A stretch of 64,000 bases of DNA from Escherichia coli. Its GTDB lineage: Bacteria; Pseudomonadota; Gammaproteobacteria; Enterobacterales; Enterobacteriaceae. A program made the position numbers and the translations under genes. Every line of letters begins with the position of its first letter. Position 1 is the stretch's first letter. The DNA is taken from assembly GCF_036507355.1 (NCBI RefSeq), contig NZ_AP027877.1. One strand, 5' to 3'. This document shows positions 4,897 to 51,280 of the stretch, one piece after another. Under the pieces are notes generated by a model. That model did no database searches. It saw only the letters and a program-made list of their open reading frames with translations, and was not told where the DNA came from.

Positions 4897-5082
4897 ATGC
4901 TGATTCTGACTCGTCGAGTTGGTGAGACCCTCATGATTGGGGATGAGGTCACCGTGACAGTTTTAGGGGTAAAGGGCAACCAGGTACGTATTGGCGTAAA
5001 TGCCCCGAAGGAAGTTTCTGTTCACCGTGAAGAGATCTACCAGCGTATCCAGGCTGAAAAATCCCAGCAGTCCAGTTACTAA
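4897..5082 (+). CDS. csrA: Carbon storage regulator CsrA
   Basis: 61-aa [64 protein letters not shown]. Confidence 0.97.
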
Positions 5083-5397
5083 TCTTTCCGCGTCTCATCT
5101 TTATCGGTGAGACGCACCCTCAAAATTTCTCCTTCACTCTATAGTCTTTTCGCTTTACTCCCGTTCATTCAACTTAAGTCTCCATTTTTTTACATTACTG
5201 CTATCTGTCAGACCTCCATTTTTCTGTTGATAAAACACTCTTTTTGACGTTTTTACAGACTAATTGAACGTGAAGTGTGCAAACGATAAAAGTGTGGGAA
5301 AAATTGTTTGACTTATAAGTCTCAGAAAGTAATATGTGCGCCACGCAGCGACGATGAGCGATAAACAAGTTCTTCGAAGCACTCGTAAGAGGCGTGT

Positions 5398-40307: not shown

Positions 40308-41075
40308 GGTGATGCTGCCAACTTACTGATTTAGTGTATGATGGTGTTTTTGAGGTGCTCCAGTGGCTTCTGTTTCTATCAGCTGTCCCTCCTGTTCAGC
40401 TACTGACGGGGTGGTGCGTAACGGCAAAAGCACCGCCGGACATCAGCGCTATCTCTGCTCTCACTGCCGTAAAACATGGCAACTGCAGTTCACTTACACC
40501 GCTTCTCAACCCGGTACGCACCAGAAAATCATTGATATGGCCATGAATGGCGTTGGATGCCGGGCAACAGCCCGCATTATGGGCGTTGGCCTCAACACGA
40601 TTTTACGTCACTTAAAAAACTCAGGCCGCAGTCGGTAACCTCGCGCATACAGCCGGGCAGTGACGTCATCGTCTGCGCGGAAATGGACGAACAGTGGGGC
40701 TATGTCGGGGCTAAATCGCGCCAGCGCTGGCTGTTTTACGCGTATGACAGGCTCCGGAAGACGGTTGTTGCGCACGTATTCGGTGAACGCACGATGGCGA
40801 CGCTGGGGCGTCTTATGAGCCTGCTGTCACCCTTTGACGTGGTGATATGGATGACGGATGGCTGGCCGCTGTATGAATCCCGCCTGAAGGGAAAGCTGCA
40901 CGTAATCAGCAAGCGATATACGCAGCGAATTGAGCGGCATAACCTGAATCTGAGGCAGCACCTGGCACGGCTGGGACGGAAGTCGCTGTCGTTCTCAAAA
41001 TCGGTGGAGCTGCATGACAAAGTCATCGGGCATTATCTGAACATAAAACACTATCAATAAGTTGGAGTCATTACC
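40308..41075 (+). mobile_element. IS1 insertion sequence, copy 1 (768 bp, with target-site duplication)
   Basis: Starts ggtgatgctgccaacttactgat, ends ...gttggagtcattacc; insA-like ORF 40363..40638 and insB-like ORF 40557..41060; flanked by atattttg direct repeats (40300..40307 and 41076..41083). Confidence 0.95.
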
Positions 41076-43047: not shown

Positions 43048-43123
43048 GGCCCTTTAGCTCAGTGGTTAGAGCAGGCGACTCATAATCGCTTGGTCGCTGG
43101 TTCAAGTCCAGCAGGGGCCACCA
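43048..43123 (+). tRNA. ileY: tRNA-Ile2 (anticodon CAU/lysidine type)
   Basis: 76-nt ggccctttagctcagtggttagagcaggcgactCATaatcgcttggtcgctggttcaagtccagcaggggccacca. Confidence 0.9.
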
Positions 43124-43873
43124 AATCATCATTCATGTATCAGGAAGAGTTAAGGGTACAAGGGGTACTCGATGGCGGTCTATATTTCATGACTAACGCC
43201 ATTTAAAGGAAGAAGTGCGGTGGGTGGTTTCGAATGAGGGCTGGTGTTTTGGTACGTGGCACGCCACTGCAATGTATTTATCCATCAGTACTCATTCAAA
43301 AGTACCTGGAAAAAATGCCCGCTATGCCAAGCGGGCAAATTGCTTACATGTGGAATTAAGTAATTAACGATAAAGCCAGAGTATTATCATTTATTATACC
43401 CATTCATTTAATCAGGTTAATTACTCAAATCACTGAACTATTCTCTGTTCGCTCACTGATGATGAGTGAGTACCACAACCAATGTATTAGAACAATGCCG
43501 TAGAGTAAGGATGAAATGTCTCTACCACACCTTAAACATCTACTACTGACTAGAACACCCGCCGCAGGTAGATGAGTTTTGTGAGCGTTACAGGAGCGTG
43601 GCTATGCTCATTAACCAACGCTATTGAGATATAAATTTCTAACACTTGAAAAACGATTTTCACTAATAAATTATAACGGGTGTTTTTTATCATACAGCGA
43701 AATAACTTTTTGTTTATTAAATTTAACATTCTTGTGCTAATTTAATTAAAAAGTCCATGCGTAGCATGTGAAGCAGTTAATGCCAGCAATTGTCTCAAAT
43801 GAGCGATTTTTTATAGTGACAAACAATAATAACATTAAAAATAGCCATGTAGACATTAACTGAGGAATAGACA

Positions 43874-45223
43874 ATGTTAATTAATAAAAGCAACGGATTT
43901 AACGCTAGCGCAGTTTTGGGTAGTGGAAATTATAATGAAAATAAATCTTCTAAACACATGGAGCTACTAGCTCATAGTATTGTAAAATTAATTTGTAAGG
44001 AAGCTGCATCAGAGACGTATCGCGGTGCTCTTGAAACTTTACAAAAAATGATGTCTGAATGTAAATATAAAGAAGGCAACGCCTTTGTCATTATGGGTGC
44101 TGGAGGGCAATTAAAACGTATTAAATATGATGTTGATGAAAATAAATTAAAAATATTCAACATATACTTTGATAATAATTACGAGGTAGTTACTGATGGT
44201 GAGCCTGACGTAGTATGTTTAAGCAAGCAGGTCTGGGAAAATCTTCTCATTAAATTAAAACCGGAGATTAAAGAAAATGTGTTTTCTGAAAATAACAAAT
44301 TATCGAGAGAAAATAATGTTGATCAGTATGTTCAATCCGCTAAAAGAAATGAACAGGCCCTTTTCGATAATATAATAAAAAGTGATTTTCATGTTGCTTC
44401 ACTTCAGCCAGGTAGAACACGTAGTGTTATTTCAGAAACGCCGCCAAATGACTGTATGGAATCACGTAATTCATATGAAAACCAAATAGATGAGATTTCA
44501 TCTTTGTCAGAGTCAAAGGAACACCCTATAGATATTCAAGAAAAAACAGATGCGTTTGTGAATGAGTTCAAGGGGATATTATTTGATCAAAATGGAAGGT
44601 CTTCAGAGTTTCTACTTAATTTTTATGAATGTTGCTATGTGTTTTTACCAAGAGCGCAGCCTCAGGATAAAATCGAAAGCTATAATTCAGCACTGCAAGC
44701 TTTTTCCATCTTTTGTTCATCTACGTTGACACATAATAATATAGGCTTTGATTTCAAATTATTTCCAGAAGTCAAGCTGTCTGGAGAACATCTTGAAACG
44801 GTATTCAAATACAAAAATGGCGATGATGTCCGGGAGATAGCCAAAATTAACATTTCTCTCCAAAAAGAAGAGGGTGGTTTATATAATTTACGTGGATTGG
44901 ATTTTAAGGGATGCTTCTTTTCTGGACAGAACTTCAGTAACTATGATATTCAATACGTGAACTGGGGAACGTCATTGTTTGATGTTGATACTCCGTGTAT
45001 TTTTAATACGCCTGCTAACAATGAGAGTTATGAAAAATCATTAAAACCTGTAAGCGAAAACGGTTTAAATGGAGTCTTATCTGATCGTATTAAAAAAATA
45101 AAAATGATCACGGGTGTGGCACCATTCGATGATATTTTATTTATGGATGATGACTTTGATGATAACTCCCCTGAGGATGGTCCCGTTGAGAATATTCCTG
45201 TTATGAATAGTCCTCTTGTATAA
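43874..45223 (+). CDS. Hypothetical protein, AT-rich, with C-terminal pentapeptide-like repeats and acidic tail
   Basis: 449-aa ORF; visibly AT-rich; NLRGL/DFKGC/FFSGQ/NFSNY/DIQYV/NWGTS pentad periodicity; ends MDDDFDDNSPEDG; hairpin ggggctacgttttcatgtaacccc ~150 bp after the stop. Confidence 0.6.
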   Translation: MLINKSNGFNASAVLGSGNYNENKSSKHMELLAHSIVKLICKEAASETYRGALETLQKMMSECKYKEGNAFVIMGAGGQLKRIKYDVDENKLKIFNIYFDNNYEVVTDGEPDVVCLSKQVWENLLIKLKPEIKENVFSENNKLSRENNVDQYVQSAKRNEQALFDNIIKSDFHVASLQPGRTRSVISETPPNDCMESRNSYENQIDEISSLSESKEHPIDIQEKTDAFVNEFKGILFDQNGRSSEFLLNFYECCYVFLPRAQPQDKIESYNSALQAFSIFCSSTLTHNNIGFDFKLFPEVKLSGEHLETVFKYKNGDDVREIAKINISLQKEEGGLYNLRGLDFKGCFFSGQNFSNYDIQYVNWGTSLFDVDTPCIFNTPANNESYEKSLKPVSENGLNGVLSDRIKKIKMITGVAPFDDILFMDDDFDDNSPEDGPVENIPVMNSPLV

Positions 45224-45649
45224 AGTTCTAAAAGCAGTTTTCAATGATAAATAAATGGCTATTTTTACGAAGAGATAATAACGTAGATTGAAACAATATG
45301 TATTATTGATTGAGTAAATGGGATTATTCTTCACACTACATCCATTTTAGTGTCACTACCAAAGAAAAAGGGGCTACGTTTTCATGTAACCCCTTGATTT
45401 ATTTGGTGGGCTGGCAGTGACTGAATTGGTGCTGTAATTGGTTGAAATATTTCATCTAATGTCTGGTTCAACTTTCCTTAGCTGCCTGAAAGTTTTTTGA
45501 TCTCACCCAGTAATAACAGCGTTACGGTGCACCACGCCTGACTGAAGAACTGCGTGCTCAGGGTTACCACTTCAACGTAAAACCGTGGCAGGAGGTCCGG
45601 ACTGAAAAAACTGCTCAGGACATCATCGGCAGGGAACGCACTGCTAGTC

Positions 45650-45830
45650 TGTAAACTGAACCGACTGGGGCGCAGTATGTGGCATCTTGTCGTGCTGTTG
45701 GAGGAGCTGTGCGAACGTGGTATTAACTTTCGTGCTCTGGCCCAATCTATATTTGCCCAACAATGGGGGGACGAATGCTGTAAAAGTAAAACAATCTGCG
45801 ATCTCAAAGTTATTGTGTGATTTTTATGTG
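45650..45830 (+). pseudogene. Remnant of a Pin/Hin-type serine invertase (pinH-like)
   Basis: Translated fragment [37 protein letters not shown] resembles the invertase core (...WKLDRLGRS...RGI.F.SL...); frame breaks upstream. Confidence 0.55.
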
Positions 45831-46149
45831 AGCAGAAGATATTCATCAGAAACGATTATGTAAATCATTTTATTTTGCCAACGGCCTCATTGTCGAAAGA
45901 AAAGAATACGCCCGTGTTTCCTGAATAGATTGACTTTTTTATCTAACCACACTTCAGCGCACTGCGTTTAAAAAATGCCTCATTCTTATGCGGAATATCA
46001 TCATTTCATCATGATGTCTTTGATGAGCGGTGAACACAATACACTTGCGCTGTCTCTTCAGGATGAATCCCCTGGTCTGGTGCCTGTGGGCTGATGTTGC
46101 AGCAAAGCTAAGGTCGCTTAAACGCTACTCAGTATTCACTTTTCAGAGG

Positions 46150-47653
46150 ATGAAATTTATGAACAGGACCAGTCCCTATTATTTTCGCCGCTCAGTACTT
46201 TCCTTATTGATATCTACCTTAATATATGCCCAGCCCGGGATGGCGGCCTTCACTACTAATGTTATTGGTGTGGTAAACGATGAGACTGTAGATGGCAACC
46301 AACGAGTAGATGAACGAGGTACAACAAATAACACTCATATTATCAACCATGGCCGGCAGGAGGTCTATGGTGGGATATCTAATAGTAGTATTATTGAAAC
46401 TGGTGGCGAGCAACTAGTATCAATCCATGCCGATATTAACGGGCAAGCTAATAATACAACCATTAATGGAGGCAGACAGTCAATTGAGTACGGAGGAATT
46501 TCTACTAGCACGATAATCGAAAGTGGCAATCAATATGTTCATAAAGGTGGTACCAGCAATGACACGACAATTAAGGGCGGTACTTCACGCATAGAGGGGG
46601 GGACTGCAAATGGAACAATCATTGATGGTGGTAGCCAACAAGTAACAACTCAGGGGCATGTTGACGGTACAACGATAAATAAGTCTGGCTCTCAGGACGT
46701 AGTACAAGGAAGTCTGGCAACGAACACAACCATAAATGGTGGTCGACAGTATGTTGAACAGAGCACAGTAGAAACAACAACCATTAAAAATGGCGGTGAG
46801 CAAAGAGTATATGAGAGCCGTGCGCTGGACACGACGATTGAAGGCGGAACTCAGTCTCTGAATAGTAAGTCAACGGCAAAAAATACACAGATCTATTCTG
46901 GTGGCACGCAAATTGTTGATAACACCAGCTCCTCGGATGTTATTGAAGTTTATTCCGGTGGCGTGCTTGATGTTAGTGGTGGTACGGCAACAAATGTTAC
47001 CCAGCACGATGGTGCAATTTTAAAAACTAACACTAACGGTACGACGGTGAGCGGTACGAATAGTGAAGGTGCATTCTCCATCCACAATCACGTGGCAGAC
47101 AATGTGTTGCTGGAAAACGGTGGTCATTTAGACATAAACGCATATGGTTCGGCAAACAAGACGATTATTAAAGATAAAGGAACAATGTCAGTTTTAACCA
47201 ATGCTAAAGCTGATGCGACCCGAATAGATAATGGCGGGGTTATGGATGTTGCAGGAAACGCGACAAATACCATAATTAATGGTGGCACACAGAATATTAA
47301 TAATTATGGCATAGCCACAGGCACCAATATCAACAGCGGAACGCAAAATATCAAAAGCGGCGGGAAAGCTGACACAACAATTATATCCTCCGGGAGCCGG
47401 CAGGTTGTTGAGAAAGATGGTACGGCAATTGGCAGCAATATTAGCGCCGGAGGCTCGCTGATTGTCTATACCGGCGGTATTGCACATGGGGTTAACCAGG
47501 AGACGGGCAGTGCTTTAGTTGCCAACACGGGTGCAGGGACTGATATCGAAGGATACAACAAGCTCTCTCACTTCACTATTACCGGAGGGGAGGCTAATTA
47601 TGTTGTGCTGGAAAACGCTGGCTCATTAACAGTCGTCACTGGTTCCCGGGCAG
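46150..47653 (+). pseudogene. Autotransporter-adhesin passenger domain (ypjA-like), truncated by IS1
   Basis: Signal peptide MKFMNRTSPYYFRRSVLSLLISTLIYAQPGMA then repeated ...TTINGGRQ...GGT.. motifs; reading frame runs directly into the IS1 left end at 47654; no beta-barrel domain. Confidence 0.75.
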
Positions 47654-48421
47654 GGTGATGCTGCCAACTTACTGATTTAGTGTATGATGGTGTTTTTGAG
47701 GTGCTCCAGTGGCTTCTGTTTCTATCAGCTGTCCCTCCTGTTCAGCTACTGACGGGGTGGTGCGTAACGGCAAAAGCACCGCCGGACATCAGCGCTATCT
47801 CTGCTCTCACTGCCGTAAAACATGGCAACTGCAGTTCACTTACACCGCTTCTCAACCCGGTACGCACCAGAAAATCATTGATATGGCCATGAATGGCGTT
47901 GGATGCCGGGCAACAGCCCGCATTATGGGCGTTGGCCTCAACACGATTTTACGTCACTTAAAAAACTCAGGCCGCAGTCGGTAACCTCGCGCATACAGCC
48001 GGGCAGTGACGTCATCGTCTGCGCGGAAATGGACGAACAGTGGGGCTATGTCGGGGCTAAATCGCGCCAGCGCTGGCTGTTTTACGCGTATGACAGGCTC
48101 CGGAAGACGGTTGTTGCGCACGTATTCGGTGAACGCACGATGGCGACGCTGGGGCGTCTTATGAGCCTGCTGTCACCCTTTGACGTGGTGATATGGATGA
48201 CGGATGGCTGGCCGCTGTATGAATCCCGCCTGAAGGGAAAGCTGCACGTAATCAGCAAGCGATATACGCAGCGAATTGAGCGGCATAACCTGAATCTGAG
48301 GCAGCACCTGGCACGGCTGGGACGGAAGTCGCTGTCGTTCTCAAAATCGGTGGAGCTGCATGACAAAGTCATCGGGCATTATCTGAACATAAAACACTAT
48401 CAATAAGTTGGAGTCATTACC
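47654..48421 (+). mobile_element. IS1 insertion sequence, copy 2 (768 bp, no target-site duplication)
   Basis: Same sequence and orientation as copy 1 (identical InsA/InsB translations); flanks cccgggcag / gaggttttg do not match. Confidence 0.95.
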
Positions 48422-49239
48422 GAGGTTTTGTTATATATGTTGTTTCCAATATATTTTTCATTTGTCAAAATTTGATGTATTTTTGCACGAGTCCATAATG
48501 TTCCATTTTCTGCAGGTATGTTCTGTTCATTTAATCTCTCAGCAATAATGAATTCTGGGACGTTATTATCTATAAAGAGATCATATATTCTATTTACAAT
48601 TTTTATTTCATTTTTTGGTCCCGGAATTAATATTACCCTATCTGTTTGAATACTCTTTCTTTTGCGGAAACTCAATATTTCTTTAGCTATGCCATTTTCG
48701 TCTACTAAAAGACGTCTCAGCCCATAACCAGCCATACCGCCTTGATGATAACCAAGCTTTATTAAATTTACTTGCCCTATAAATACCTTTTCAGATAGAT
48801 TCCTGCTGTGATATGCAGCACTAGATCTTTTTATATTCAGTATAACAGAGGACTCTAAAGGGAAATCTTTAGTGGGTATAGGTTCGGAACAATATATAAG
48901 ATCTACACCATTTCTCTCAAATAGAAAGGAATAATATGCCGCTTCATCACTATTTTGAAAACGACCAAAACGGCTCACATCATAAAATAATACAGCCTGT
49001 ATATCTATTTTCTTTTGTTCTACATCGCTAAGTAACTGCTGCAAAGAATGCCTGCCTACGATACTGACTCCGCTCTTACCTGCATCATCGTAGGTATAAG
49101 CGATTTCCATATTGTTCTTTTCAGCATAATCTTTGATATATTCGGACTGATTATGTAAAGAATATTGCTGATGGTCGGTAGACATCCTCAAGTACTGCGC
49201 GACCCTAACTCTATGATTTTTTTCATTTTCGCTAGCCAT
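48422..49239 (-). pseudogene. Large serine recombinase, C-terminally truncated by IS1
   Basis: N-terminal resolvase catalytic motif VAQYLRMSTDHQ and following recombinase-domain sequence; ORF ends inside IS1 after ~272 codons; AT-rich. Confidence 0.7.
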
Positions 49240-49521: not shown

Positions 49522-50751
49522 TTATGCGGCAATAACTTTGCATTTTTGAGACGAAACATAGTCACTCCACCATTGCATGAGAACCACCCGTTCAGTGAGA
49601 TACTCTGCACGATTGTAGGCTGCAATTATTTCATCTTTCTTCGAGTGGGCAAGGGCGGCTTCTAAGACATCAGTCCTAAACTTGCCAGACTCCTCAGCAG
49701 CCGTTCTAGCAATGGATCGCATACCGTGAGCTACAAGCTCACCTCCGAAACCCATACGGATTATGGCCGCATTAGCTGTTTGTTCATGCATGTGATTGAG
49801 TGGAGCTTTGATACTGGGGAACACCCACTCTCTATGCCCGCTGATGACTTTCATTAAATCCAAAACTCGCAAAGCTTCTTTGCTCAGTGGAACTTTGTGA
49901 GGCTTCTTCATTTTCATAAACTCCGCCGGGATGTTCCACATGCCAGTTTCAATATCAATATCTGACCATCTTGTGCGAACAGCTTCACCTGGGCGAACCC
50001 ATGTGAGAAGTTGCCACTCAATCAGTAGCCTTGTTTCCAAACGGATAGAAGCATTGTTTAGAGCAACCAAGAAGCGAGGGAGTTCGGAAGGGGGTAATGC
50101 TGGCATATTCTGTTTTTTTGGCTTGCTGAACCGTTGCCCCAGGTTGTCTGCCGGGTTGAATTCTATGAGTTCTTCTGTTGCTGCATAGCGGAAAATTTCA
50201 TTCAGGCGGGATATGATGCGGCGAAGTGTTTCAAGGACACCTCGTTTTTCTATGGGTTCTAAATGCTGTTTAAGCATTTTAGGGCGAATCTCCTTAATTG
50301 GGGTATCACCCAATGTGGAAAAGATATTTCTCTCTAGGCTTCGCCAGATGTCGTTAGCATGATCTTGGGAGATGCCTGACGTTTTGACTTTCTCATCAAG
50401 CCACTTCTTGGCTACTGCTTGAAATGTATGTTCCGTGGCATCTTTCAGTGCATTGGCTTTTTGGTTGTTATGAACTTGGGGGTCTATACCATTTGTAAGC
50501 AACGACAAGTATTCATCACGTAAAGCTCGTGCCTTCGCAAGTGTAAGGTGAGGATAGGTTCCTAAGCTCACCTTAGTTCGCTTTTTGGTCACAGGCACTG
50601 CATATCTGAAATACCAATTTTTCTTCCCTCCCTTCGCCAGGGGAGCGATTCGCAACAGCAAACCATCGCCGTCAAAAAGGTTAACCTCTTTTTCGGCAGG
50701 TTTGGTGCTTTTGATTTCAGTGTCAGTGAGCTTCTTAGCGATTTTGGCCAT
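49522..50751 (-). CDS. P4-type tyrosine integrase adjacent to tmRNA
   Basis: ORF ...MAKIAKKLTDTEIKSTKPAEKEVNLFDGDGLLLRIAP...WYFRY...; C-terminal catalytic domain (HGMRSIARTAAEE); 166 bp from the ssrA 3' end. Confidence 0.88.
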   Translation of the reverse strand: MAKIAKKLTDTEIKSTKPAEKEVNLFDGDGLLLRIAPLAKGGKKNWYFRYAVPVTKKRTKVSLGTYPHLTLAKARALRDEYLSLLTNGIDPQVHNNQKANALKDATEHTFQAVAKKWLDEKVKTSGISQDHANDIWRSLERNIFSTLGDTPIKEIRPKMLKQHLEPIEKRGVLETLRRIISRLNEIFRYAATEELIEFNPADNLGQRFSKPKKQNMPALPPSELPRFLVALNNASIRLETRLLIEWQLLTWVRPGEAVRTRWSDIDIETGMWNIPAEFMKMKKPHKVPLSKEALRVLDLMKVISGHREWVFPSIKAPLNHMHEQTANAAIIRMGFGGELVAHGMRSIARTAAEESGKFRTDVLEAALAHSKKDEIIAAYNRAEYLTERVVLMQWWSDYVSSQKCKVIAA

Positions 50752-50917
50752 GTTTGGGACCCTCGATTTTAGGACCCATCTTCGTGGGTCCCATTCAGGG
50801 TGCCATAACTCGTAGTTCTCAGCAATTCTCACTAGACTACAATAGACGTAAAAAAGCCCGCAGAGCTTGTGCTGTGCGGGCTTAGTAGACTTTACTGAAC
50901 TTCAGTACATCAATATT

Positions 50918-51280
50918 TGGTGGAGCTGGCGGGAGTTGAACCCGCGTCCGAAATTCCTACATCCTCGGTACTACATGCTTAGTCAGTCTTTACATTCGCT
51001 TGCCAGCTGCGGACGGACACGCCACTAACAAACTAGCCTGATTAAGTTTTAACGCTTCAACCCCAGGCAGGGCTTCCACGCGATCTCTTTTGGGTTTGAC
51101 CTCTCTTGATCCCCGTCCTAAGAGCGGAGGCTAGGGAGAGAGGGCTCTAAGCAGGTTATTAAGCTGCTAAAGCGTAGTTTTCGTCGTTTGCGACTATTTT
51201 TTGCGGCTTTTTACGAGGCCAACCGCCCCTCGGCATGCACCTTGGGTTTCGCAAATCCCGTCGAATCCAGAATCAGCCCC
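50918..51280 (-). ncRNA. ssrA: tmRNA (SsrA)
   Basis: Minus-strand reading starts ggggctgattctggattcgacggg and ends gttcaactcccgccagctccacca; encodes tag peptide ANDENYALAA (gcaaacgacgaaaactacgctttagcagct); 363 nt. Confidence 0.95.

Follow-up and report, generated by a model that had tools for sequence, protein, structure and literature searches.

In Gin, Hin and gamma-delta the catalytic serine motif lies at about residues 8-10, and the Fis-dependent recombinational enhancer sits in the 5' part of invertase genes. Intact invertases such as PinE of e14 and the Gin, Cin and Hin enzymes of Mu, P1/P7, P2-like prophages and Salmonella are complete proteins of ~185-190 aa, with the catalytic serine and a C-terminal helix-turn-helix domain, and they adjoin a ~1.8-kb invertible tail-fibre segment with pix-type inverted repeats (PMC12529663). 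The closest intact relatives of the locus described here adjoin invertible tail-fibre segments of P2-like/e14 prophages, from whose sequences we recovered the e14 crossover sites (AAACCTTGGTTTGGGAGAAGG and CCTTCTCCCAAACCAACGTTT, 1797 nt apart) and, in a P2-like phage, a 31-nt perfect repeat pair; the P-segment repeats as reported agree with both sets of sites (PMC12529663). Within the 64-kb window (the whole stretch of Escherichia coli DNA that we analysed), by contrast, the catalytic-domain core homologous to these enzymes occurs as a short fragment that has neither the complete length, the catalytic serine nor the C-terminal helix-turn-helix domain, and that lies beside neither a tail-fibre segment nor pix-type repeats.

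A 37-residue peptide from this fragment had been assigned, in a sequence-only reading of the DNA, to the conserved core of Hin/Pin/resolvase-family serine recombinases, and homology searches bear this assignment out. The coding sequence of the peptide, 45641-45751 on the + strand, falls within an open frame that runs from stop to stop (45581-45817), with a TAA upstream and a TGA at 45818-45820. A profile search, which might have returned no significant similarity to serine invertases, instead placed the translation of 45584-45751 above the curated cut-off for the catalytic-domain family Resolvase (Pfam PF00239, E 3.8e-8, 34 bits against a cut-off of 23.3), with the match spanning profile positions 51-103 of 145 only. 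Among solved structures the best match was the phage Mu Gin DNA invertase (PDB 3uj3/4m6f; residues 39-95 of 193, E 1.7e-12, 50.6 bits), and tblastn with E. coli PinE aligned residues 39-94 to 45584-45751 at 71% amino acid identity (E 1e-22). At the DNA level, prophage invertase genes of E. coli matched 45593-45733 with identities of up to 83.7% over 141 bp (E 7e-34), and the top phage matches to the fragment were annotated DNA invertases.

These comparisons also bear on whether the source of the fragment might be a transposon- or plasmid-borne cointegrate resolvase of the Tn3/gamma-delta type rather than an invertase. The adjoining IS fragment and the mobile-element-rich surroundings would suit such a source, and the Pfam domain is common to both subfamilies, but gamma-delta/Tn3 resolvases matched the fragment at only 18-22 bits (21.8 bits and E 2e-3 for gamma-delta, against the 50.6 bits of Gin), whereas DNA identity to prophage invertases reaches 84% and amino acid identity to PinE 71%; we regard the probability of a resolvase source as close to negligible. 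By homology, the fragment is a member of the Hin/Gin/Pin/Cin-type serine DNA invertases, far nearer to these than to the gamma-delta/Tn3 resolvases.

Alignment with the K-12 genome identifies the fragment as the already catalogued pseudogene pinH (b2648) of E. coli K-12. The window is ~98% identical, column by column, to K-12 and to strain EC1515, and the K-12 annotation of pinH maps to the stop-to-stop frame at 45581..45820 (+ strand), while in other strains PGAP labels 45584-45751 as an incomplete 'recombinase family protein' missing its N-terminus and C-terminus. Among the papers searched, none dealt specifically with pinH. Taking Pfam, Gin, PinE and DNA alignments together, we place the remnant of the Pin-type invertase at 45590..45775 (+ strand): DNA homology to pinE and to two prophage invertase genes runs from ~45590 to ~45775, so that the surviving part amounts to ~185 bp, or codons ~39-105 of a gene of ~184 codons, about one third. 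The limits of 45650-45830 given in the sequence-only reading were thus slightly off, since homology extends from about 45584/45590 to ~45775 and the frame closes with ~45 bp that do not derive from an invertase. The K-12 annotation likewise includes foreign sequence at both ends; because of where the homology breaks, its first ~9 bases can be attributed to IS3 and its last ~45 bases to the leader of the neighbouring gene ypjA.

The frame of the remnant is broken on both sides, as the sequence-only reading had it. Upstream, homology begins at PinE residue 38/39 and is preceded by an IS3 fragment with neither a start codon nor N-terminal homology: pinH is without the N-terminal ~38 codons, the first ~115 nt of the invertase gene are deleted, a start codon is missing from the homologous position, and a tblastn search with PinE residues 1-38 gave no match in the whole 64-kb window. 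Downstream, relative to pinE, a frameshifting 4-bp deletion lies within 45741..45764 (+ strand), its exact place being ambiguous (MAFFT alignment, gap columns 183-186), and is followed by a 3-bp expansion of a G-run (~45765-45770), after which homology ends; PinE residues 95-184, which hold the C-terminal helix-turn-helix domain, had no match in 45000-46200 or in the whole window. Within the remaining core, pinH departs from residues that PinE, the P2-type invertase and Gin share (KLDRLGRS to KLNRLGRS, VVW to LVC, SMRH to SMWH and ELRERG to ELCERG). In a rough Nei-Gojobori estimate from only 56 codons, dN/dS was 0.40 for pinH against pinE and 0.12 between two intact genes, pinE and the P2-T22 invertase; the pinH value fits relaxed constraint. 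Because the N-terminal serine region and the C-terminal DNA-binding domain are lost, the start codon is absent and the frame is shifted, pinH cannot encode a recombinase.

Both edges of the remnant are junctions with unrelated DNA. On the left, an internal IS3 fragment of 85 bp (45505..45589, + strand), identified by blastn against K-12 IS3A, corresponds to IS3A nt 530-615 inside insF/orfB (90% identity, E 4e-28); its translation matches Pfam HTH_21, it matches genes annotated as 'IS3 family transposase' in E. coli plasmids, and it carries no annotation at the pinH locus, either in K-12 or from PGAP. Neither IS3 terminus is present in this fragment, and we therefore infer that the IS3-pinH join came about through deletion or illegitimate recombination and not through simple insertion. 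GC content is 0.53 in the IS3 and pin pieces versus 0.34-0.40 in the flanks, a composition that marks the two pieces as foreign inserts.

On the right, the upstream leader module of ypjA (45773..46129, + strand) was delimited by its occurrence at a second genomic place and by pairwise alignment. This leader of ~360 bp is ~89% identical to one at the ymgJ-ycgI autotransporter-remnant locus near minE (5001-5359 of the extracted locus sequence), which has no invertase beside it and which appears as a second matching place in most E. coli genomes. The start of the ypjA leader coincides exactly with the end of invertase homology. Since the leader recurs without an invertase and its edge is the point where invertase homology ends, leader and invertase appear to have been joined secondarily. 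The leader may be a shared regulatory module of the ypjA-type autotransporter lineage. Both copies contain a paralogous 39-codon ORF. The K-12 ycgV locus was also considered as the leader paralogue and was rejected for lack of similarity, the paralogue being ymgJ-ycgI. A 25-mer from the ypjA leader was also searched against GTDB species representatives for an intact upstream invertase elsewhere, and hit two tiny contigs only; these belong to a Terrisporobacter mayombei assembly and a Planococcaceae MAG, and E. coli contamination probably explains both matches.

The sequence-only reading further supposed that the decayed invertase had once controlled phase variation of the neighbouring adhesin-like gene. 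On this account pinH would be the relic of a Hin-like switch, in which an ancestral invertase in or beside an invertible promoter segment toggled ypjA, as hin does for fljBA; the remnant does precede ypjA and point the same way, in the geometry of hin and fljB. Inversion control of an autotransporter has a counterpart in UpaE, whose switch uses FimB/FimE-like tyrosine recombinases and intact inverted repeats. UpaE, an autotransporter of UPEC, is given as being under invertible-element control in PMC9289746 (citing Battaglioli et al. 2018), and so exemplifies in E. coli the kind of mechanism supposed for ypjA, an adhesin-like autotransporter switched by DNA inversion; nothing comparable to its intact inverted repeats occurs near pinH/ypjA.

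The search for recombination sites gave this supposition no support. We looked for crossover sites in three ways, with the complete 26-mer, with the AAACC-NN-GGTTT core and by scanning for the best similarity to the e14 and P2-like phage sites: the window held no pix/gix/hix-like 26-mer with 3 or fewer mismatches, its matches to the core were at chance level and all >9 kb from pinH/ypjA, and the best 26-mer similarity to crossover sites in 43.1-47.7 kb was 17/26, equal to the level in shuffled sequence. In that interval, accordingly, no hix/gix/pix-like site and no inverted-repeat recombination site was found beyond chance. The leader of ypjA is moreover independent of the invertase, beginning where invertase homology ends and recurring at ymgJ-ycgI without one; the sampled matches from ~3000 genomes included no inverted arrangement; and the nearest relatives of pinH are tail-fibre invertases. 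We consider a Hin-like relic at this locus very unlikely, although the DNA on which such a geometry would depend is itself deleted. Just as improbable, in our judgement, is the fuller proposal that the ancestral invertase formed a switch for a ypjA-type module, with the ~360-bp leader that ypjA has in common with ymgJ-ycgI as the remains of its invertible control region, or its weaker variant, in which the IS3-pin mosaic now modulates ypjA transcription. If such a switch had existed, this would be the first autotransporter of Escherichia under the control of a serine invertase.

The pinH-ypjA junction is present in 3001 complete E. coli genomes, and the ypjCB-pinH segment in 3030, in each case as a single place that accounts for 80% or more of the query, and for both queries every sampled full-coverage match was collinear and on one strand. 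The mosaic is kept in ~59% of complete E. coli genomes at 88-99% identity, and the conservation of pinH is not above that of neighbouring non-coding DNA.

Such retention raises the question of co-option, namely that ypjA draws a promoter or regulatory site from the fragment, or that the fragment encodes a small peptide, for instance that of an ATG-initiated 47-codon ORF at 45677-45820. Beyond the existence of this ORF and the persistence of the mosaic in ~59% of genomes, the evidence runs the other way: the C-terminal half of the ORF is read from ypjA-leader DNA, a promoter and terminator scan of 45150-46250 found no + strand sigma-70-like promoter and a total count at the level of shuffled sequence, an Rfam scan of 42-52 kb returned nothing at the pinH locus (ileY, tmRNA and weak partial matches only), conservation does not exceed that of the flanks, and both the K-12 and PGAP annotations treat the locus as a pseudogene. 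An antisense 122-aa ORF and small neighbouring ORFs at pinH had no Pfam match. That the scar is so widely conserved might mean that it has acquired a secondary use, but we hold co-option of either kind to be highly doubtful.

We conclude instead, with high confidence, that pinH is a non-functional middle fragment of an invertase gene, probably from a P2-, Mu- or e14-like prophage, and an inert relic of old prophage/island turnover. Debris of the parental phage was sought by tblastn across the 64-kb window using the tail fibre, tfa, sheath, McrA and PinE proteins of e14/P2-like phages, and PinE alone gave a match; because the window holds no other phage remains, the prophage origin is argued solely from the nearest relatives of the fragment. 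In the history that we propose, an invertase gene would have been disrupted within horizontally acquired DNA between ileY and ssrA, and illegitimate joins would then have fused the remnant on its left to the internal IS3 piece and on its right to the ypjA leader. The resulting mosaic would have become fixed before the sampled E. coli lineages split and have drifted since, leaving a remnant presumably without a role, the scar of old prophage/island turnover. All that pinH offers is a sign that prophages or islands turned over long ago between ileY and ssrA in E. coli and Shigella-like genomes. The new details concern its true limits (~45590-45775) and the nature of its two breakpoints (the IS3 piece and the leader duplicated at ymgJ-ycgI), and are limited to these; they help to reconstruct how the ypjA region was assembled and open no new biology.

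The neighbouring elements show further turnover. The description of a decayed invertase adjoining a truncated autotransporter holds, in that pinH lies beside a copy of ypjA that is cut by IS1. The 5' third of this gene (ypjA/ehaD, encoding an AIDA-type autotransporter adhesin and recognised from homologous RefSeq loci and Pfam AIDA repeats) occupies 46159..47653 on the + strand; ~498 codons are left before the IS1 cut at 47653, where the full-length RefSeq gene measures 4581 bp in K-12. The IS1 copy (47654..48421, + strand; called from its InsA/InsB ORFs, IS1 end sequences with the terminal repeat at 47654, and E. coli annotation) truncates both of its neighbours, ypjA and a large serine recombinase gene that is unrelated to pinH and was recognised at 48422-49239 on the - strand by its Resolvase and Recombinase domains. 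This double truncation suggests that most of the ssrA-linked island was deleted by an IS1-mediated event. Further on lie a P4-type tyrosine integrase gene beside ssrA (49522-50832, - strand) and the tmRNA gene ssrA itself (50918-51280). No complete E. coli genome reproduced the exact ypjA::IS1 junction, and the closest of them matched the locus at 99.1% identity. A second IS1 lies ~7 kb upstream, with a terminal repeat at 40308 and an InsB-sized ORF at 40557-41060, and fits an IS1-rich, Shigella-like genome. Adjoining ssrA directly downstream, at 50850-50927, we also observed a weak partial Rfam match to the IsrM sRNA (46 bits against a gathering score of 376), which probably mirrors shared island-attachment sequence and not an IsrM gene.

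On the other side of pinH, a tRNA gene with a CAT anticodon (43048-43123), called tRNA-Met by ARAGORN, corresponds to ileY, annotated as tRNA-Ile(CAU) in RefSeq, and is followed by an intact ypjCB of 449 codons (43874-45223) with DUF5507 and DUF5508 domains. This gene is unusually divergent among E. coli, at 88-95% identity with only 3 records at or above 99%; the pinH-ypjA junction varies much less. A 16-nt inverted repeat (15/16 matching; 43836-43851 and 45252-45267) brackets ypjCB almost exactly and is the sole notable pair in 43.1-47.7 kb; it was rejected as a switch, being near chance (31 of 200 shuffles contain one or more such pairs), without a pix-like core and associated with no inversion among the 3030 genomes with collinear matches.

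Among described loci, two others can be set beside the one in the window. Another naturally truncated Pin-like gene (104 aa), at the end of prophage vB_EcoM-611R5, is among the best DNA matches to the fragment (83.7%) and, unlike pinH, retains its N-terminus, its start codon and the adjoining tail-fibre segment. The K-12 pinH locus is the nearer counterpart: its sequence is virtually identical and its gene order is that of the window, with ileY, ypjC/ypjB, pinH and ypjA in succession in MG1655, although K-12 has ypjCB split into ypjB and ypjC where the window carries the intact 449-codon fusion, and the window further differs from K-12 in having ypjA interrupted by IS1 and in lacking most of the CP4-57-like island that separates ypjA from ssrA.
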